Source: an uncultured Planctomycetia bacterium (GTDB lineage Bacteria; Omnitrophota; Gorgyraeia; 1-14-0-20-64-10). From it: a stretch of DNA of 29,189 nucleotides. The notes beneath the pieces were generated by a model. The model made no database searches and was not told the origin of the DNA. It was given only the letters and a program-made list of their open reading frames with translations. Every line of letters starts with the position of its first letter. The stretch's first letter is position 1. Made by a program: the position numbers and the translations under genes. The stretch lies in NCBI GenBank assembly GCA_964553935.1, contig CAZKNC010000001.1, forward strand, positions 1-29,189. The letters are read 5' to 3'. Of the stretch, positions 1 to 28,800 are shown one piece after another.

Positions 1-1869
<1,869 letters not shown>

Positions 1870-1932
1870 TAAAATAGAGTGAATGTAGTCAAAAGTCTGT
1901 GTTGCATATGATATACTTATGTTATGGATAGA

Positions 1933-1947
1933 AACATCACAGATGTT
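1933..1947. promoter_or_regulatory. Perfect inverted repeat AACATC-aca-GATGTT overlapping the Fic gene start; candidate autorepressor operator
   Basis: 6-bp palindromic arms at 1933-1938 and 1942-1947 in AT-rich DNA, overlapping ATG 1943 of an HTH-bearing gene. Confidence 0.4.
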
Positions 1948-2860
1948 ATATAGCCATTTCCCTCTATCTGACAAGGACAAGCTCAATGCTTTGATCCAGC
2001 AGGCGGGGCTTAAGCGGACCGAACTGGCCCGGCTGATTGAGGTTCCGTACCAGACGCTGTACCGCTGGTTGGAGCAGGGGGTCCGGCCCCACCCGTTTTC
2101 TTCGCGGCGGATCGATGAGTTGTTCAAACACCACATGGATTTAATGCCGGTCGTGGAGAAGGCGCAGAAAGACCTGGGCGACCCCATCCGGATCCTGAAA
2201 GAAGATCAGGCCGTGCGGGACCGGTTCTTCCTGGAGATGACCTACCACTCCAACGCCATTGAAGGCAGCCGCATGACGATGAAAGAAACCGAAAAAGCGA
2301 TGGCGGGGAAGTCGGTGCCCGGCAAAGAACCGTTCGAGGTGTTTGAAGCGGTGAATCACAAGAACGCTTTGTTAGAGGTCATGGAAAGGATCAAACCTGG
2401 CTTCCGAATCGATGAGGAGTACGTGTTCAAGCTCCACTCCATCGTGCTGTACAACTTCCACGACAAACTGCCGGGCAAGTACCGCACCGGCCACGTGAAC
2501 CTGACCAATACCGACAAAGCCCTGCCGTCGGCCCAGCAGGTCCCGCTCCGGATGGCGGAATTTTTCAAAGAGGTGAACCATTCCGGCGACAAGCCGGTGG
2601 TCAAAGTGGCCCGTGACCATTACGAATTCGAAGCGATCCACCCCTTCTTTGACGGCAACGGCCGGGTGGGGCGCCTGCTGATGCTGACCCAGCTTTTGAG
2701 CCGCGGCTACCCGCCGGCGCTCATTCGGCTGGATGATCGGTATGCCTACTATTTCGCGCTGGGCAAGGGGGATATGGGCGACTTCAAGAACCTGGTGCAG
2801 ATGGTCTGCGAGAGCGTTTTGCGCGGCTATCATCTCCTCAGACCGGAGAAATCGGCGTAG
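1943..2860 (+). CDS. XRE-type HTH fused to a Fic (AMPylase) domain
   Basis: N-terminal LNALIQQAGLKRTELARLIEVPYQTLYRWLEQG is Cro/XRE-like. Inhibitory motif SNAIEG at 2249-2266; canonical Fic loop HPFFDGNGRVGR from 2639. The start could also be 1919. Confidence 0.92.
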   Translation: MLYSHFPLSDKDKLNALIQQAGLKRTELARLIEVPYQTLYRWLEQGVRPHPFSSRRIDELFKHHMDLMPVVEKAQKDLGDPIRILKEDQAVRDRFFLEMTYHSNAIEGSRMTMKETEKAMAGKSVPGKEPFEVFEAVNHKNALLEVMERIKPGFRIDEEYVFKLHSIVLYNFHDKLPGKYRTGHVNLTNTDKALPSAQQVPLRMAEFFKEVNHSGDKPVVKVARDHYEFEAIHPFFDGNGRVGRLLMLTQLLSRGYPPALIRLDDRYAYYFALGKGDMGDFKNLVQMVCESVLRGYHLLRPEKSA

Positions 2861-2976
2861 CCGGGGTATCTATTTTCCGCGTGATGATGTATAGTTAGAG
2901 TGTAGGAGGGAGGGAAAGACGAGTTCCTCCTGCGAAGTGAGTGAAGGAGGCAACAAAGATGGTGTACGGCGCAGTT

Positions 2977-3017
2977 TGAACGGGCGGGTGTCGCGAGACG
3001 AATTCCCCGCCCGTTCA
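2977..3017. terminator. Strong GC hairpin in an intergenic region, possibly an intrinsic terminator
   Basis: TGAACGGGCGGG (2977-2988) pairs perfectly with CCCGCCCGTTCA (3006-3017). There is an inner GTC-GCGA-GAC stem-loop, and an A/T-rich tail TTATTT follows. Confidence 0.55.
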
Positions 3018-3210
3018 TTATTTATAGAATTCCTTCCGCAGCGCTTCACATTTACCGTTCCACCTAACCCAAGCTAACCGCTCTAGATCCCGCTTGATCT
3101 AAATAGTAGACAGATGTATCCTATCTCCAGCAGAAGGTTGCTTCATGCCGAGTCCCATAAGAGTAAGTATAATTATATGTATAAATAACCATATATAGGG
3201 TATACTTTTT

Positions 3211-3495
3211 ATGGATGAGAGCTGGGGAAGGTTTGTTTGGGATGTTGAAAAGGAACAAGAGAATCTCCGTAAGCATGGTGTTGATTTTCGAACAGCAGCT
3301 AAGGTTTTCAGTGATCCGGACAGAAGAATTTACTTGAATGTCCAACATAGCGCTGAAGAGGAGCGGTATTTTTGTCTTGGCAAGGTAGAAGGAAGGGTCT
3401 TAACGGTCCGATTCGTCTATCGAGCAGAAAAGATCCGGATCTTTGGGGCCGGCCATTGGAGGAAAGGGAGGGCGCTTTATGAAAAAGAAGATTGA
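3211..3495 (+). CDS. brnT: BrnT-family ribonuclease toxin
   Basis: F-x-WD..K...N..KHGVDF..A..VF.DP, HS..EERYFCLG and VLTVRFVYR..KIRIFGA match the BrnT pattern; 94 aa. Confidence 0.9.
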   Translation: MDESWGRFVWDVEKEQENLRKHGVDFRTAAKVFSDPDRRIYLNVQHSAEEERYFCLGKVEGRVLTVRFVYRAEKIRIFGAGHWRKGRALYEKED

Positions 3496-3718
3496 TTCGG
3501 ATATGCCGCATGGAGAAATGATCCGAATACGGGATTTTCTGCCTCCGCCCAGCGAGTTGGTGGTTGAGGAAGATACGGCCAAGGTGACCATCGCACTCAA
3601 GAAATCGAGCGTGGAGTTTTTTAAGCGCGCAGCCATCAAACACCATACGAAGTATCAGAAAATGATCCGCGAACTGTTGGATCAGTACGCCTCTCGCTAC
3701 CGCTCCAAGGTGGCATAA
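3479..3718 (+). CDS. brnA: BrnA/CopG-like (ribbon-helix-helix) antitoxin
   Basis: ATG 3479 overlaps the 3' end of brnT. DFLPPPSEL...KVTIALKKSSVEFFKRAA...KYQKMIRELLDQY is the BrnA-type RHH C-terminus. Confidence 0.85.
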   Translation: MKKKIDSDMPHGEMIRIRDFLPPPSELVVEEDTAKVTIALKKSSVEFFKRAAIKHHTKYQKMIRELLDQYASRYRSKVA

Positions 3719-3727
3719 CATCAAAGG

Positions 3728-3840
3728 ATGGTTATGAAACCAGTTCGAGCTAAGACGCATGAGGAGGTTTTAAAACCGCTCCTCAAGGATTCCAAGTTTC
3801 GAAAGGGTTACGAAGCGGATGCGCTTAAAAGAGCAGGCAA
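3728..3840 (+). pseudogene. Probable truncated N-terminal fragment of an HTH antitoxin/regulator
   Basis: MKPVRAKTHEEVLKPLLKDSKFRKGYEA resembles the helical N-terminus of HigA-like HTH proteins. After ~35 aa the frame runs through a REP-like hairpin and the csp promoter, and no HTH follows. Confidence 0.4.
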
Positions 3841-3907
3841 ACGAGATGGAGGTTCCTTATTAAGCCGACGAGTGTACGGCGGTTCCGCCCGGCTCGATGC
3901 GGCCGAA

Positions 3908-3937
3908 TTCGTCCTTCGACAAGCTCAGGACGAACGG
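3908..3937. repeat. REP-like palindromic element TTCGTCCTTCGACAAGCTCAGGACGAACGG
   Basis: Arms TTCGTCCT (3908-3915) and AGGACGAA (3927-3934). The core CTTCGACAAGCTCAG matches a widespread intergenic repeat type I recognise from many bacteria; only one copy in this window. Confidence 0.6.
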
Positions 3938-3961
3938 TTGGGAAGGAAGGCGAGAAACTCC

Positions 3962-3990
3962 TTGACAGGGGGCGGAGGAGAGGGTACTCT
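3962..3990 (+). promoter_or_regulatory. Sigma70-type promoter for the cold-shock gene
   Basis: TTGACA (3962-3967), 17-nt spacer, TACTCT (3985-3990). Implies a ~150-nt 5' UTR, as is typical for csp genes. Confidence 0.65.
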
Positions 3991-4051
3991 TACCTCTGTA
4001 GCACGAGTAAGTTTGAAACGTTGTAGGCAGGAAACGATAGGCAGGACCTAT

Positions 4052-4093
4052 ACGACTGCACGGCTCTTACTCAAGCGGCAGTCGTTTTTGTTT
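4052..4093 (+). terminator. Intrinsic terminator-like hairpin inside the predicted csp leader
   Basis: ACGACTGC (4052-4059) pairs with GCAGTCGT (4078-4085), followed by TTTTGTTT. Confidence 0.5.
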
Positions 4094-4146
4094 ATCCGCA
4101 CTCCTACATACGACACATAGAGGAAAGGAAGGTTAATCAATTCAGC

Positions 4147-4350
4147 ATGGCTAAAGGTACAGTGAAGTGGTTCAGCGACCAGAAGGGCTATGGGTTCGTC
4201 ACGCCGGAGAATGGCAAGGATGTTTTCGTCCATTTCTCCGCGATTCAGGGAGAAGGTTTCAAGACCCTGCGCGAGGGCGAAGCGGTGGAGTTTGACATCA
4301 CCACCGGCCCCAAGGGAGAGCAGGCTTCGAACGTGAGGCGGGTCTCCTAA
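4147..4350 (+). CDS. cspA: Cold-shock protein (CspA family)
   Basis: GTVKWF, RNP1 KGYGFV, RNP2 VFVHF and [10 protein letters not shown]; 67 aa. The exact paralog is not assignable. Confidence 0.97.
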
Positions 4351-4393
4351 GGTCGAAAACGCGTCAAGCGCGTTCTGACCACGGGTTTTCCAG

Positions 4394-4428
4394 CGGGCTC
4401 GGGAGTCATCCCGGGCCCGTTTTGCTTT
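4394..4428 (+). terminator. Rho-independent terminator after csp, facing the convergent DUF502 gene
   Basis: CGGGCTCGGGA-gtca-TCCCGGGCCCG stem followed by TTTTGCTTTT. Confidence 0.8.
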
Positions 4429-4438
4429 TGGAGGGGGC

Positions 4439-5074
4439 CTAGAGCGACTTGCTGCGGGAGAGAGCGGCCAGGGAAGGAGTGACCACCCCGCCGGAAACGA
4501 CCAGTTTCAGCGCTTGCTCGGTAGACATTTCCAACGGGATGACGTCGTTGGGTGGTGCGAAGATGATGGGACCGCTCCAGGGAGAGGGCGGGGTGGGGAT
4601 GAGGATGGTCAGCAGTCTTCCACCGATGGCGGGTACCTCCGATTCCCCTGTGACGAACCCGATCGAATACAGCCCCGGCCGCGGATAGACCACCAGCACC
4701 ACACGGCTGATTTTCGTCTGGGATTCGCCTTCTTTGGGGAAGAGGAACTGCGTGAGTTGTTTGATCGCGGGGTAAATTTTTCCAGCCACTGGAATCCGGG
4801 TCACCCACATGTCCACGGTCGGAAAAAAAAGCTTCCCGGCCAAATGGGTGGAGACGTAGCCGACCAGCACCAGGATGACCACCGTCAGGATCAATCCCAG
4901 CCCCGGGATCGTGAAGCCCAGATAGCGGCCCAGCGTTTTCCCCAGGATTCCATCGGAGAACTGAAAGAGTTTCATGACCAGATAAACGGTCACTGTGATG
5001 GGGAAAAGCGTCGCCAAACCCGCGACCAGATAACGGCGTAAGCTGTGCCGAAAACGAACGGAAAGGGAACTCAT
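4439..5074 (-). CDS. DUF502-family membrane protein
   Basis: Two N-terminal TM helices, RIPVAGKIYPAIKQL, VVLVVYPRPGLYSIGFVT and PTPPSPWSG (variant of PTTPNPTSG). Confidence 0.88.
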   Translation of the reverse strand: MSSLSVRFRHSLRRYLVAGLATLFPITVTVYLVMKLFQFSDGILGKTLGRYLGFTIPGLGLILTVVILVLVGYVSTHLAGKLFFPTVDMWVTRIPVAGKIYPAIKQLTQFLFPKEGESQTKISRVVLVVYPRPGLYSIGFVTGESEVPAIGGRLLTILIPTPPSPWSGPIIFAPPNDVIPLEMSTEQALKLVVSGGVVTPSLAALSRSKSL

Positions 5075-5141
5075 GCTACGCCCATGTTATCCGGACAGCC
5101 GGGGCGCGTCAACCGCCGGCTTTTGATAGGATAGTGGTGAA

Positions 5142-5753
5142 ATGGACGCCTTCCTGGAGCTGTTCTCAAAACTGCATGAGATCGACGCCCTTATTCGATG
5201 GGGCGGCTACACGCTGCTGTTCGCGATCGTTTTCGCCGAGACGGGCCTGCTCATCGGGTTTTTCCTGCCGGGGGATTCGCTTCTGCTGACGGCCGGCCTG
5301 CTGGCCTCGGTGGAAGGCAGTCCCTTGGCGATCGGGCCGCTGTTGGCGGTCTTGAGTGTTGCGGCGGTGCTGGGCGACAGCACCGGGTATGGGATCGGCG
5401 CTTACGTCGGACCCCGCATCTTCAATCGGGAGGAATCCCGATTTTTCCATCGCAAACATCTGTTTCGTGCCCAGCGTTTCTATGAAAAATACGGTGTTAA
5501 AACGATTGTGCTGGCCCGGTTCGCGCCGATCGTCCGGACGTTCGCGCCCACGCTGGCCGGAGTGGGGAAGATGCATTATCCAACGTTCCTCGCGTTCAAT
5601 CTGGTCGGCGGCGTGGCCTGGGTCTGTTCGATGACGCTGGCCGGCTATGCGCTGGGGACGATCATTCCCGACGGCCGCCGTTATTTCCCCTGGATCGTCG
5701 GGGCGGTGATCCTGCTGTCTTTGCTGGCGCTTAAGGCCTGGAAAGACGAATGA
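5142..5753 (+). CDS. dedA: DedA/VTT-domain membrane protein
   Basis: FAETGLLIGFFLPGDSLL, GDSTGYGIG and ARFAPIVRTFAP motifs. Confidence 0.93.
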   Translation: MDAFLELFSKLHEIDALIRWGGYTLLFAIVFAETGLLIGFFLPGDSLLLTAGLLASVEGSPLAIGPLLAVLSVAAVLGDSTGYGIGAYVGPRIFNREESRFFHRKHLFRAQRFYEKYGVKTIVLARFAPIVRTFAPTLAGVGKMHYPTFLAFNLVGGVAWVCSMTLAGYALGTIIPDGRRYFPWIVGAVILLSLLALKAWKDE

Positions 5754-7093
5754 GCGGGATTAAAAGAAGCCTCTCGATCTCCTGGAAAGAAGGGATCCCC
5801 GCTTCGGCCATGCTGGGCATTCTGGATTATTACTTGGTTCCTTATGGGCTGTTCCTGGGGGCCAGCACGCGGGGAATCGGGTTTTTGGTGGCGCTGCCGC
5901 AGCTGCTGGCTTCCGCGGCTCAATTAGCGGCGGTCGAGCTGGTGCGGCGGGTGGGGAGCCGGCTCCGGTTTGTTGTTCAAATGGCCTCGGTTCAGGCGGC
6001 TCTGCTGATCCCGATGGCGGCCCTGGCGCTGGTGACCGGGCCGAACCGAGTCGCCGCGCTGGTGGCGCTGGCGATCCTGTTCCGCGTGGTGAACAACCTG
6101 ATCGGCACGGCCTGGGGAAGTCTGACCAGCGAGTACCTGCCGGCTGAAAAGCGGGGATCTTATTTCGGATGGCGGTCACAGGTGGTGGGGATCGCCTCAC
6201 TCATCGGGGTGGGGGTGGGCGGCGTGCTGCTGGCCCGGATGGAAACCGTCTCTCCGGCGCTGGGTTTTTTCCTGCTTTTTTTACTGGCCGCGTTGCTGCG
6301 GTTTGTTTCTGCCGGTTTTCTGGCGATGATGACCGACCTGCCGATGTCCAGGCCGCCGGGATCGGATTTCACGTTCGTCATGTTCCTGCGCCGGTTCCGG
6401 AAGAGCAATTTCGTGAAATTCGTCCTGTACGTTTCGGCGATCATCTTTTCCACGCATCTGGCGGCTCCCTATTTCAACGTCTACATGCTTCGGGATCTCG
6501 GCTGGAACTACTTCACGTACATGGTCGTGCATCTGGCGGCGGTTTTTGCGGGGTTGGTCGCCATCCCGATCTGGGGCCGGCACGCCGATGTGGTGGGAAA
6601 CGTCCGGATCCTCAAAACGGTCGGCTGGCTGGTTCCTTTGATCCCGTTTCTGTGGCTGGTCTCCAGCAGCGTGGCCTACATTTTCGCGGTGGAACTGTTC
6701 GCCGGGTTCTGCTGGGCCGGCTTCACGCTCTGCTCCACGAATTTCATTTACGACGCTGTCGCGCCGGAAAAACGGGTGCGCTGTCTGGGCTATTTCAACC
6801 TGTTCCAGGGGCTGGCGATCTTTCTGGGCGCTTTGCTGGGCGGTTTTATCGCCGATCGCCTGCCGCCGCTCAAGGGGTATCCCATCCTGACGCTGTTCGT
6901 GATTTCCGGCCTGCTTCGGCTCGCGTCGCATCTGGCGCTGGCGGGACAGTTCCGTGAGGTCCGGGTGGAAGCGCGGCCAGTGTCCAGCGTACGGCTCTTC
7001 TTCAGCGTGGTGGGGATCCGGCCGGTGGTCGGGCAGGACACCGAATGGGGAGTATTCCCGTTGACGAGAAAACTGCGGCGGCGGGCCTGGTGA
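5750..7093 (+). CDS. Major facilitator superfamily transporter, substrate unknown
   Basis: About 12 hydrophobic segments in two halves, WGSLTSEYLPAEKRGSYFGWR and WGRHADVVG loop motifs; ATGA overlap with dedA. Confidence 0.88.
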   Translation: MSGIKRSLSISWKEGIPASAMLGILDYYLVPYGLFLGASTRGIGFLVALPQLLASAAQLAAVELVRRVGSRLRFVVQMASVQAALLIPMAALALVTGPNRVAALVALAILFRVVNNLIGTAWGSLTSEYLPAEKRGSYFGWRSQVVGIASLIGVGVGGVLLARMETVSPALGFFLLFLLAALLRFVSAGFLAMMTDLPMSRPPGSDFTFVMFLRRFRKSNFVKFVLYVSAIIFSTHLAAPYFNVYMLRDLGWNYFTYMVVHLAAVFAGLVAIPIWGRHADVVGNVRILKTVGWLVPLIPFLWLVSSSVAYIFAVELFAGFCWAGFTLCSTNFIYDAVAPEKRVRCLGYFNLFQGLAIFLGALLGGFIADRLPPLKGYPILTLFVISGLLRLASHLALAGQFREVRVEARPVSSVRLFFSVVGIRPVVGQDTEWGVFPLTRKLRRRAW

Positions 7094-7821
7094 AAAAATA
7101 CAAGTGGTTCTGGGCCGCTCTGCTGGCCGCGGCCGCGCTGTTTCTCGCGCGCGGCTGGATCGTCCGGTCAACTCTGGCCGCCGGCGTTCGCGCGGTAACC
7201 GGGCTGGGCCTGCAGATCCGGCGGCTGGACATCTCTTTGCTGAAGGGGCGGGTCTCCGCGCGGGAAGTCCAGCTGCTGAATCCCAGGGGATTCGACGAGC
7301 CGGTGATGGCCGATCTGCCGGAGCTGACGGTGGAAGCGGACCTGCCGGCCTTCTTGCGCGGGAAAACGCACCTGCAGCAGCTGACGGTGGACCTGCGCCG
7401 GTTCAACGTGGTGAAAGACGCCGACGGCCGCCTCAACCTGGACGCGTTGGCCTCCGTCCAGAAAGCCAAAGAAAAGAAACCGGCTCCGAAACCGAAGCGG
7501 GAGTTCCGAATCGACCGTCTGCATTTGAAGGTCGGGACCGTGACCTACCGGGACGATTCAGGGGGCAAACCAGGTCCAGTGCGGGAATTCCCGGTGAATT
7601 TGGATGAGCGGCATGAAAACATCACCGATCCGGCCGCGCTGGGCGCTCTGATCGTGTCTCGCGCGCTGTTGAAGACGACGGTGGCTCGATTGGCGCAGTT
7701 TGATCTTGCCGTGCTTCAGGACTATGCGGGGACGCTTCAGCAGGCGGGGGAGAAGGCGCTGGAAACGGTCGGCGGCGCGGTGGAGGGGGCCTTGGACAGG
7801 TTCCGGAAGGTGATAGAATAA
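7090..7821 (+). CDS. Short AsmA-like protein with an N-terminal membrane anchor
   Basis: GTG 7090 overlaps the MFS stop (GTGA). One TM helix is followed by beta-rich segments (LQIRRLDISLLKGRVS, LNPRGF, LNLDAL) typical of AsmA N-terminal domains. Confidence 0.7.
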   Translation: MKKYKWFWAALLAAAALFLARGWIVRSTLAAGVRAVTGLGLQIRRLDISLLKGRVSAREVQLLNPRGFDEPVMADLPELTVEADLPAFLRGKTHLQQLTVDLRRFNVVKDADGRLNLDALASVQKAKEKKPAPKPKREFRIDRLHLKVGTVTYRDDSGGKPGPVREFPVNLDERHENITDPAALGALIVSRALLKTTVARLAQFDLAVLQDYAGTLQQAGEKALETVGGAVEGALDRFRKVIE

Positions 7822-25501: not shown

Positions 25502-25531
25502 TTGACGATCGAAATGTGTGGATGGTATATT
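25502..25531 (+). promoter_or_regulatory. Candidate distal sigma70 promoter upstream of the riboswitch
   Basis: TTGACG (25502-25507), 18-nt spacer, extended -10 TG-g-TATATT (25523-25531). Confidence 0.5.
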
Positions 25532-25679
25532 TACACTGTCGGTCAAACGCAAGGGGGGAACAGGGATGAATTCTCATTTCATGGAACTCCGCAATTGCTT
25601 TGGTTTTAAAGGCCTCTTTTCAGTGCTGAAGGGGTTTTCTTTCGGCCATTTTGTTATGACATTGGAAAAGTATTTGAGC

Positions 25680-25709
25680 TTGATTTTATATCCAATACGC
25701 AGTTATGAT
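25680..25709 (+). promoter_or_regulatory. Candidate proximal sigma70 promoter that would start transcription just 5' of the aptamer
   Basis: TTGATT (25680-25685), 18-nt spacer, TATGAT (25704-25709); predicted +1 about 10 nt before the aptamer. Confidence 0.45.
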
Positions 25710-25725
25710 TTAGAAGTTCTACTCC

Positions 25726-25821
25726 CCGATAAAGGCAAACTCGCCGTGAGGCGAGGGCGCAAAGCCACGGATCCCGGATTCTTTAGTATTTTAGAGAATG
25801 GCGGGACAGCCGGGTTGCCGA
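25726..25821 (+). ncRNA. Cyclic di-GMP-I (GEMM) riboswitch aptamer
   Basis: AAAGGCAAAC, P2 stem CTCGCC-GTGA-GGCGAG with a GNRA loop, GGCGCAAAGCCACGG, an extended P3, and GACAGCCGGGTTGCCGA. All match the GEMM-I consensus as I know it. Confidence 0.88.
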
Positions 25822-25863
25822 CTAAAGGATAAAACCAGAAGGAACGGATGAGTCGACAGCCCG

Positions 25864-28800
25864 GTGAATAATTATCGCCACTTTTATAGGCACCATTCTT
25901 CGGTGAAAGAAAGTTCGCCGGAGGTGGAGGGCGCGATCCTGGAATGGAACGCGCCTCGCCGTCGACCTATTCTGCGTTCCGTCGCTTCGCTGACCTGCTT
26001 TGCTTTCGTCATTACCCAGCTTCCGATCCGCCCGGCCTTGGCCGTCGCTCCCCAGGAAGTCGTCACTTTGGGGAACCTCAGCAACATGACCAACGTTGCC
26101 AACCTCGCCACCTTGAATGAGCGCCGCCAATCTCTGCTGAACCGGCTGGAGCGGGAGCGGAATATTCAGGCCAGTGTGGAGGCCGGCTGGCTGACGGCGA
26201 ACGCCGGGGTCGCGCACAACCTTCAGACGCTGAACATCGACATTTCCCGGGCGCGCGAAGCGATCGAGCGGACCGGAAGCCAGGGCGCCTCAAGGGTTCA
26301 GGAGTTGGCCGGTGTGGTGGCCTCTCCCGCGACCACCGGCACGCTGGAATTCAACTACATGCCGGTTCGCAACACCGCCGGCGCCCCGGCCGGCCGCGAA
26401 TGGATGAAGATCTATTTCCGCAACAATCTGGCCAGCCGTGTTCTGGGAGAATGGGTTTCCTCCGCCGGCGGCGGTTTCCTGCGCGATACGTCCAGCATGA
26501 AGTACAACAGCAACCGGCTGCTCCAATCCTACGAGGCCGTCGAATACCGGCAGATTCCAGGCATGCTGGGCGGACGGCTGACTTTGAGGACCATCCGATG
26601 GACCGGCAACTGGACCTCCGATTCAAAATTTTACGCCAGCACGGAGACGGTTGCGGTGCGGCAGCTGCTGGACGAGCGGATTGAAACCACCACGTACAAC
26701 ACCTGGACCCAGGCCGACATCGACCGCTTGCTGACCAAGCTGGCCGAAGTGGAAAGCAAGGTCACCTCGGCCGCCGAGGTGGCTTGGGCGGTGGCCATGC
26801 GCAAGGAGCTGTCGGAAGGAGCGATCGCGGACGGCAAGACCACCCAATTCACCGGGGTTACGGAGCGGTTCTATGAACAGCATGATCGGAACCGCCCGCT
26901 GGCCTGGCGGCAGATCACCACCGATCCCACGGGTGTCACGGAATCGCACGTGACGGTCACCTACATGGGTCCCAAGGACAACAAGCTGTCGAACTATCTG
27001 GAAGAGGGCGTCCGAAAATCCAACCTGATCACCCAGGACGATTACGAACATTACCAGGCCTGGCTGGCCCAGGTGACCGCGGAAGGGACTTTGAGCGCCG
27101 AGCAGTTGACGGCGCTGAAGGCCGCCATGGACCCCATCAAGCCGGGGCAGACGACTGAGACCTTCTTCACCACGGAGCGGACGTATTTCGATTACACCAA
27201 GGACGGCGACCCGCTGCATTTCAAGGAACGGAGGGTTTCGTCCGATTCTTCGGTGGTGACCGAGACCGACTCCACGCTGGTCTACGATGAGCAGCGGCGG
27301 GTGGTTCGGCAGACGGATGTCCGCACCGAGAACGGCGCCTACACCTCCAAGGATATGGAAGCTTTTTGGGCGATGGTACTGGAGGCGGAGCGCAAGGGGA
27401 TCGATGCCGTGGTTGCCGAAGCGGAGTTCGCCGGGGATCTGCGCCGGAAGCTGGAGACCGGAGAGCTCTCCGCCGGGTCGGCCTTCAGCCGGACGGTCGG
27501 GGTGGTGCGCGAGAGTTTCTTGTACAACGAAATGCTTCAGCCGGTGGAGTGGCTTCAAACCACGACGACCGGCGGCACGAAACTGGTCGAGCATTATTTT
27601 GCCTATCACAACGACGCGCAGGGACGGAACCTGGATCTGCTGATCTTATCCGATGAGGAGACCGTCTACACCGCTGAGGATCAGGAACAGCTGCGCCGGG
27701 AAGCGCGGGCGATTCTGAACGCATCGGATTCTAATGACGCGGACCGAGAAGCGGCCCGCGAGCTGCTCCGCCAGCTGAACAGCGGAGATTTTCCAGCCGT
27801 CTTCCGGCGGTCGAGCGTCCGCTACCGCGGCGAGATCGTTTACAACGCGGCCGGGCTACCGATCCAGTACACCGAATATTCCACCTCCAACGCGGACCAG
27901 CTCCTGACCGTGACCGAAGCTCAAGGCCTTCAGTACGACACCAATGGACGGGAGCTTTCCGGTCTTCGGATCACCCATCGGACGGGAGTCGGCACGCGGA
28001 CGGTTTACCGGCTTCCGGACGGGGCGGAGCTGACTCCTTCCATGCTGGAGCAGATGCTGAGGACCCATTCCAGCAGCGGTGACCGGGCGACTCTTCAGGA
28101 GTTGATCGATGCCGGCTTGATCCGAGCTGTCGGCGCTCAGGACAACCCGTTGACCGAAGAGCAGATTGAACAGATCCTGCGCGAGAATCCGATGACGACG
28201 GACGGCGAACCGCGGCCCATGACGCTGCAGGAAGCGATGACGGCGAACTTGCTGGTCCTCTCCGGCTCCGGCGGCGTCTTGCTGGACGAGGCGGCGGTTG
28301 TCCAACTGCTCCGAGAGCAGTCCGTTGCTCCGAACATCGCGACGCTGGAAGAGATGATCGCGCTCGGGCTCATTCAAGCCGACAGCCAGGTTCCGTTCAT
28401 GCTGGATCAGAGAACCATCTCGTACCGGCATGAGACGGTTTATGACAGCATGGGCCGCATCGTCTCGGTGGTGGAAAACAGCGTCGATCCGTCCAGCGGC
28501 CTCCAGACGACGACCCGCTCTTACGGAACCACGTACGACTCCGAAGGAAGGCAATTTTCTTCTTTGACGGAGAGCCGACAGTACGGCAGAACCATCCGGA
28601 CCGGGCTTTTCTTTACCGGAACGGAGAACGAGCTCGATCCGATCGAGCTCCATACGGAGATCGAGCAGAACGGCCTTTCACTGAGCCAATTGATCGAGCA
28701 GGGCGTGATCGAGCGCCGCGAGGTCGACACGGAACTGGATCAGACCACCTTCAGCTACCGCCAGCAGACCCGCTATTACGATTCCAACCAGGTGGAGGGT

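Follow-up and report, generated by a model that had tools for sequence, protein, structure and literature searches.

A c-di-GMP-I riboswitch in the leader of a giant gene of uncultured Omnitrophota, with a predicted start-occluding expression platform

The Omnitrophota are uncultured bacteria with very long genes, whose function and control call for explanation. Here we ask how one such gene might be regulated. It lies at the end of a 29,189-nucleotide stretch of DNA (GenBank assembly GCA_964553935.1, contig CAZKNC010000001.1), hereafter the window, which is the longest contig of a metagenome-assembled genome of 1.69 Mb (340 contigs, 59.8% G+C). The gene is preceded on the same strand by an aptamer of the class I cyclic di-GMP (c-di-GMP-I) type, and the question is therefore what that aptamer does to the gene behind it. 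We found that the aptamer carries the canonical contact bases, that aptamer and gene are linked along the family, and that a conserved alternative helix pairs the 3′ end of the aptamer with the start codon region. We consider it reasonably probable that the riboswitch acts at translation initiation of the giant gene, such that the start is buried in the ligand-free RNA and the ligand-bound RNA is ON.

A search of the window with cmscan at gathering thresholds returned a single riboswitch, at 25725-25823 on the forward strand. The best alignment was to RF03167 (c-di-GMP-I-GGC; 69.7 bits, E = 8.9e-15, cut-off 59 bits). The parent family RF01051 (c-di-GMP-I) matched the same site over the full length of its model (positions 1-87) at 63.1 bits against a cut-off of 35, which confirms the c-di-GMP-I aptamer proposed in an earlier reading made from the letters alone (the sequence-only reading). 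The first hairpin of the aptamer (25740-25755) is a 6-pair stem with the GNRA loop GUGA at 25746-25749, and the long second stem spans 25763-25816. Equivalents of the ligand-contacting bases were read from the cmscan alignment, with the numbering and roles of G20, A47 and C92 taken to be those of the Vibrio cholerae Vc2 structures. All three are canonical in the window: G25734 (G20), A25761 (A47) and C25818 (C92). Given this triad, c-di-GMP is the expected ligand and the aptamer would be of the canonical c-di-GMP-I (GEMM-I) type. Moreover, the source genome holds at least 11 GGDEF-domain matches and 6-7 c-di-GMP-I aptamers, and thus c-di-GMP signalling is in use there.

The position of the aptamer places it in cis in the 5′ leader of the giant open reading frame (ORF). 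A promoter scan identified a riboswitch promoter at 25680-25709 on the forward strand (-35 TTGATT at 25680-85, an 18-nucleotide spacer and -10 TATGAT at 25704-09), from which transcription would start near 25716. This promoter lies 16 nucleotides upstream of the aptamer and the ORF begins 41 nucleotides downstream of it. The arrangement is not confined to the window. Homologues of the giant gene were matched in 19/20 genomes of the family, although G002 contributes just a weak resemblance, at the N-terminus, to another giant ORF, and one more was found in the sister family; none was found in 19 other families of the class. A recognisable aptamer stands upstream of the homologous gene at 17 of the 19 loci in the family and sister family, and it is lost in L018 and L020. 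Eleven of the 17 score at least 36.7 bits on RF03167 and four score 26-34 bits, owing to insertions or decay. In the remaining two (L024 and L028), insertions or an N-run leave no Rfam match, and the aptamer could be identified by visual inspection only.

For comparison of the leaders we used a set of 18: the window (L016), 14 related genomes (L017, L019, L021-L030, L055 and L057) and three metagenome contigs (L041, L046 and L054). The last three came from a metagenome pattern scan that gave 24 loci, 4 of them genuine (L041 = L048, L046 and L054) and the others chance matches in high-GC coding DNA. L041 is the nearest relative of the window. The long frame of the window opens after an in-frame TGA at 25849-25851 and its first start codon is GTG 25864. 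An equivalent codon in frame with the giant ORF is found in 18/18 leaders, as ATG in L029 and L055, and it sits in the conserved motif GAGTCGACAGYCCG-GTG-R. The N-terminal tail that links the start to a conserved G(A/V)ILEW..PRRRP(I/V)LR block is 12-70 residues long and poorly conserved. The first codons of the window and L041 differ synonymously (AAT/AAC, CGC/CGA and TCG/TCT). From GTG 25864 the ORF runs on the forward strand to 29187, where it leaves the contig after at least 1,108 codons.

The same start region is complementary to the aptamer. The last 15 nucleotides of the aptamer (GCCGGGUUGCCGACU, 25809-25823, forward strand) double as the 3′ strand of its second stem and of the closing helix P1, and are conserved in the 18 leaders. 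They can form 14 pairs, interrupted by a single C·A mismatch, with AGUCGACAGCCCGGU at 25851-25865 on the same strand (positions -13 to +2 counted from the start codon); the C of the mismatch is the ligand-contact base C25818. The minimum-energy fold of the leader contains this switching helix (-101.1 kcal/mol, z = -5.05), and an equivalent helix is predicted in 18/18 leaders with energies of -15 to -41 kcal/mol. In alignment A1, 85.2% of cells pair, compared with 20-45% once the partner strand is shifted by 1-3 columns. Two-sided changes occur in 3 of the 15 helix pairs (G-C/A-U at columns 10/74 and A-U/G-C at 17/67), and the 8 double-change cells of this alignment were matched or exceeded in 4 of 500 shuffles; the leaders are mutually related and the covariation support is moderate. 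The 3′ strand of the switching helix also mimics the 5′ strand of the second stem of the aptamer. These two strands vary jointly across three clades, AGCC.CGG/CAGCCCGG, AGCU.CGG/CAGCUCGG and AGUC.CGG/CAGUCCGG (CC/CC, CU/CU and UC/UC), as is predicted if they compete for one shared strand.

The distance from aptamer to start is 28-41 nucleotides among the leaders and no U-tract follows the helix, and therefore there is no room for an intrinsic terminator. No conserved intrinsic-terminator platform was found between aptamer and start in the 18 leaders, the sole candidate being a 5-pair stem inside the ORF that is discussed below.

We therefore favour, with moderate confidence, a switch that works on the start codon itself. 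Without c-di-GMP the 14-pair helix 25809-25823/25851-25865 would form and hide the GTG start. Were c-di-GMP to bind during RNA synthesis, the aptamer would hold its 3′ strand, the start region would be left single-stranded and ribosomes could load, making this an ON switch. A message of 10-13 kb that is not loaded with ribosomes would probably also be open to early termination by Rho, which is encoded in the source genome.

Several observations weigh against this reading. When a shorter construct is folded, the structure containing the switching helix reaches -76.4 kcal/mol, compared with -62.8 kcal/mol when the aptamer pairs are enforced, so that free energy favours the alternative helix by about 14 kcal/mol. 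As the alternative helix is the more stable on paper, the ON state would need co-transcriptional trapping, and the very slow release of ligand reported for Vc2 is in keeping with such kinetic control. The covariation is modest, with double changes in only 3/15 pairs, and much of the support for the helix is conservation of its 3′ strand because the 5′ strand is kept anyway as part of the aptamer. No well-spaced Shine-Dalgarno sequence was found before GTG 25864, which is not unusual given that many genes of the window also lack a clear one. Furthermore, a conserved upstream ATG (25848) opens a short out-of-frame ORF, and if the GGAGG that follows the aptamer in most relatives were also a ribosome site, ligand binding would hide it. 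Lastly, the direction of the switch cannot be assumed from the target gene, because the class I c-di-GMP riboswitches of Clostridioides difficile act for the most part as OFF switches of the terminator type; one OFF switch precedes a putative adhesin, and the ON switches there belong to class II (PMC6200980).

A bolder form of the start-occlusion reading would treat the family-wide leader as a commitment gate. Three strands (the 5′ strand of the second stem, the shared 3′ strand and the start-site mimic) would form a mimicry switch that licenses ribosomes only upon co-transcriptional capture of c-di-GMP, Rho would abort the unlicensed 10-13 kb transcript, and the aptamers with insertions described below, if still working, would constitute an undescribed structural subclass of c-di-GMP-I. 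We regard this combination as speculative and, as a whole, doubtful.

The alternative that survives best is a two-layer or inverted logic. Ribosomes would load at ATG 25848, or at the GGAGG-ATG of the relatives, and an outer P1 stabilised by the ligand would hide that site, and c-di-GMP would in consequence reduce the expression of the giant gene or alter its pattern. Most relatives do have such an outer P1, in which a GGAGG directly behind the aptamer pairs with a CUCC directly ahead of it, and this pairing would itself explain why GGAGG is conserved at a distance too great for it to serve as the Shine-Dalgarno sequence of the GTG. The upstream ATG, 16 nucleotides before GTG 25864, is kept in about 12 of the 18 leaders but is absent in L017, L019 and L026. 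In the window it opens a seven-codon frame (ATG AGT CGA CAG CCC GGT GAA TAA, 25848-25871, forward strand), read from the sequence, which overlaps the start region and ends in a TAA 3 nucleotides after the start, whilst in L046 and L054 the TGA of the short ORF overlaps the start codon (GTGA). However, neither the frame nor the length nor the peptide of the short ORF is conserved in relatives, for which reason the role of the upstream frame is uncertain, and the window has no good GGAGG at that site. We judge an inverted logic unlikely. We also considered, and rejected, programmed frameshifting from ATG 25848 into the frame of the giant ORF, as the offset varies by lineage (mostly +1, but +2 in L046 and L054) and the lineages share no slippery site.

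Returning to start occlusion, a different platform had been put forward in the sequence-only reading, which held that the riboswitch directly controls the giant gene through a weak GGTGA/TCGCC hairpin with ACTTTT (25863-25885, forward strand), ahead of a strong Shine-Dalgarno-like sequence GGAGGTGGAGGG (25920-25931, forward strand) and, by implication, an ATG start at 25944-25946, on which its region ended (25945). The direct link to the gene is upheld by the same-strand leader and by the pairing conserved in relatives; the proposed platform is not. Read as a transcription-termination OFF switch, it would have the ligand free the GGUGA/UCGCC hairpin and ACUUUU to stop transcription, with translation otherwise starting after GGAGGUGGAGGG. 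The hairpin is present as written, is flagged by the terminator scan (25863-25879) and forms in the fold in which the aptamer is enforced. However, its stem consists of just 5 pairs (3 G-C) and its U-tract is poor; the scan found 3 such sites where 1.0 +/- 1.1 were expected, and hence it is not distinguishable from chance. It also lies within codons 1-8 counted from the start that is conserved in the 18 leaders, and is missing from L041 and all other leaders. It is thus probably not a terminator. Nor does GGAGGTGGAGGG fare better, for although it too is present as written it forms codons 19-23 of the ORF (P-E-V-E-G), lines up with the protein's conserved EGAILEW block, is not conserved even in L041, and has no in-frame ATG after it. 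The only in-frame canonical start beyond it is the overlapping GTG 25924, whereas ATG 25944 stands in a different frame from the long ORF (25944-25864 = 80) and is not conserved. We therefore give a termination OFF switch only a very slim chance.

Equally slim is the chance that the aptamer answers to something other than c-di-GMP, be it the ligand of the c-di-GMP-I-GGC variant class, reportedly defined by Weinberg and colleagues in 2017, or 3′,3′-cyclic GMP-AMP (3′,3′-cGAMP). What favours the variant class is that RF03167 outscores RF01051 (69.7 against 63.1 bits) and clears its own cut-off of 59. The two consensuses are almost identical, however, and differ at the A47 position (GACGCAAAgCc in RF01051, GACGCGAAgCc in RF03167). 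Here the window reads GGCGCAAAGCC, which gives A25761 and matches RF01051 (CGCAAAG) but differs from the G of RF03167 (CGCGAAg); by this base it is not a GGC variant. A also occupies this position in all 35 simple aptamers parsed from this genome and its relatives. Moreover, other plainly canonical copies in the source genome likewise reach 59-68 bits on RF03167, and the GGC label thus reflects overlap of the models and clan competition in place of altered specificity. We therefore rejected it, and caution that through clan competition Rfam gives the GGC-variant name to aptamers here that are canonical. As regards 3′,3′-cGAMP, Kellenberger and Nelson, both in 2015, reportedly showed that A or G at the G20 position separates the cGAMP type from the c-di-GMP type. 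The cGAMP-sensing GEMM-Ib form has A at this position, whilst AAAGGCAAAC in the window has G25734; this confirms the G that the sequence-only reading had singled out and by that rule speaks against the A20 variant.

That the aptamer is a relic which no longer regulates in this genome is scarcely credible, since although its core is degenerate (26-27 bits) in G010 and G019, whose proteins are the closest homologues, and it is lost altogether in two relatives (L018 and L020), the window copy scores 63-70 bits with all contact bases, the GNRA loop and the switching helix intact.

The aptamers of the family show further variation. Extra hairpins, one or two per aptamer, occur in several genera at two fixed junction sites. 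One site, closed by UCC...GGA, lies between GAUAAA and GGCAAAC (L024, L025, L026, L028 and L046) and the other between GGGGACG and CAAAG (L024, L027 and L030). The inserted hairpins often read CCGCCAA-N5-7-UUGGCGG, and Rfam scores fall to 25-40 bits or to none. Aptamers with such insertions may still be working. A different fate is seen in G010 (L017) and G019 (L019), in which promoter, switching helix and GTG are kept and the aptamer core has decayed to GGGGUAGAGUAGCU where others have GGGGACGCAAAGCY, with scores of 26-27 bits.

Across the phylum, c-di-GMP-I matches above the cut-off were found in 89 of 121 sampled Omnitrophota genomes, with up to 12 per genome and mostly before small secreted proteins. 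The best-scoring of these aptamers repeatedly precede a protein of about 100 residues with the motif GRVVALLTRDEIDFIDRLSKDALFSTG (C58:3899-3984 on the reverse strand in the source genome, L068, L070, L071, L073, L077 and L097), which appears to be a conserved riboswitch target. Different platforms are used by other c-di-GMP-I copies of the source genome. At C128:2168-2251 (reverse strand), the downstream sequence CGGCGGUCU pairs with the 3′ strand of the aptamer and is followed by UUUCUUU, forming a terminator built from aptamer sequence, and the c-di-GMP-I copy at C180:272-346 (reverse strand) has a strong stand-alone terminator.

Upstream of the aptamer, the block CTTGATTTYTTATC..TATNAT is kept in some 14 of the related leaders. 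In a similar number (about 14) conservation far exceeds that of the surroundings over roughly 45 nucleotides, RATTKRAAAAGATTTT-N3-4-CTTGATTTTTTATC (25660-25692 in the window), a stretch that contains the -35 box and might serve as an UP element or bind a regulator. Between the RND efflux operon and the riboswitch promoter, the region 25502-25656 opens with another promoter close to consensus (TTGACG-18-TATATT, TG-extended), and a terminator-like hairpin (25625-25646) and a T-run come about 95 nucleotides later. Since a consensus-like promoter recurs there in relatives, 25502-25656 may hold a small RNA gene. We rejected as a gene the 104-residue ORF at 25518-25832 that overlaps the aptamer. The frame is open in both the window and L041, but in L021 a different frame runs through this conserved RNA.

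What, then, does the riboswitch precede? In the window the giant gene follows an RND efflux operon (OEP, adaptor and two AcrB-type permeases); in L020 and L056-L058, too, the end of a permease gene closely precedes it. The homologous open frames of relatives encode 3,000-4,500 residues, the complete copy in G016 having 4,214, and the protein there is put at about 3,500-4,200 residues. Past the variable N-terminal tail, the protein has an RRRP motif and a hydrophobic segment (signal or anchor), and then repeated beta-hairpin/helix modules. Searches against Pfam (E <= 0.01) and NCBIfam (E <= 1) gave no match, RHS/YD models included; no recognised adhesin domain was found in the domain searches and no sequence relative was found in the PDB. 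An AlphaFold2 model of residues 160-690 (predicted local distance difference test score 70-95) is built from a recurring unit with four long beta-strands and two helices. The best matches in Foldseek are RHS-repeat shells (8uy4, 4igl and 6sue; E 1.6e-7 to 8.5e-6), but with template modelling scores of 0.08-0.15. From these predictions the product looks like an N-terminally anchored, RHS-like, extracytoplasmic protein. The sequence-only reading had tied it to the sessile/attachment lifestyle switch, a link that is conjectural: no adhesin domain is recognised in the protein, which looks RHS-repeat-like.

The remainder of the gene may lie elsewhere in the assembly. Contig C66 of the source genome (positions 1-7323) overlaps the last 171 nucleotides of the window at 91% amino-acid identity and its frame continues for at least 2,389 codons, so the giant frame probably continues there. 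The continuation crosses an N-run and a frame change and includes a DUF5722 domain (137 bits), a domain that the full-length homologue in G016 does not have; the join could reflect strain variation or an artefact of scaffolding. In L030 (G008:C11) the giant gene is split into frames of 676 and 2,924 residues, by a frameshift or an assembly error.

Riboswitches of the c-di-GMP-I type before surface proteins are well known from V. cholerae, C. difficile and the Bacillus cereus group. With Vc2 and Vc1 of V. cholerae (RF01051) the window shares the aptamer fold, the contact bases, the GNRA-capped first hairpin and a place in the 5′ leader of a gene whose product is secreted or at the surface. It differs from them in that the start codon, a GTG 41 nucleotides after the aptamer, would be occluded directly by the 3′ strand of the aptamer itself, and in that the host is an uncultured member of the Omnitrophota and the target gene encodes at least 3,500 residues. 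The C. difficile riboswitches upstream of large cell-surface proteins (PMC6200980) are a further likeness, whereas the window combines a class I aptamer with a translational platform and a predicted ON response. The c-di-GMP-I riboswitch Bc1 of Bacillus thuringiensis has a long expression platform with two rho-independent terminators (PMC11218506). Both it and the window thus have a class I aptamer with a non-trivial platform, but in the window a conserved terminator is lacking and the start follows the aptamer after just 41 nucleotides. Giant genes of Omnitrophota have been described as encoding very long membrane-anchored proteins, with GGDEF domains inside them and pilZ genes downstream (bioRxiv 10.1101/2023.11.21.568195; PMC10066038). 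In contrast, the present family is smaller (about 3,000-4,500 residues), has no Pfam domains and adjoins an RND pump operon, not a type II secretion locus. Neither of those two papers mentions riboswitches, and our literature search found no paper tying riboswitches to Omnitrophota giant genes. The sensor type is known, and the target gene and the wiring, a predicted start-occluding platform, are new details.

A canonical and easily assayed c-di-GMP sensor at the start codon provides a concrete, testable regulatory input for a giant gene family. Moreover, the 11 GGDEF genes of the source genome, together with aptamers in 89/121 genomes, point to c-di-GMP riboswitches as a major control layer in the Omnitrophota.

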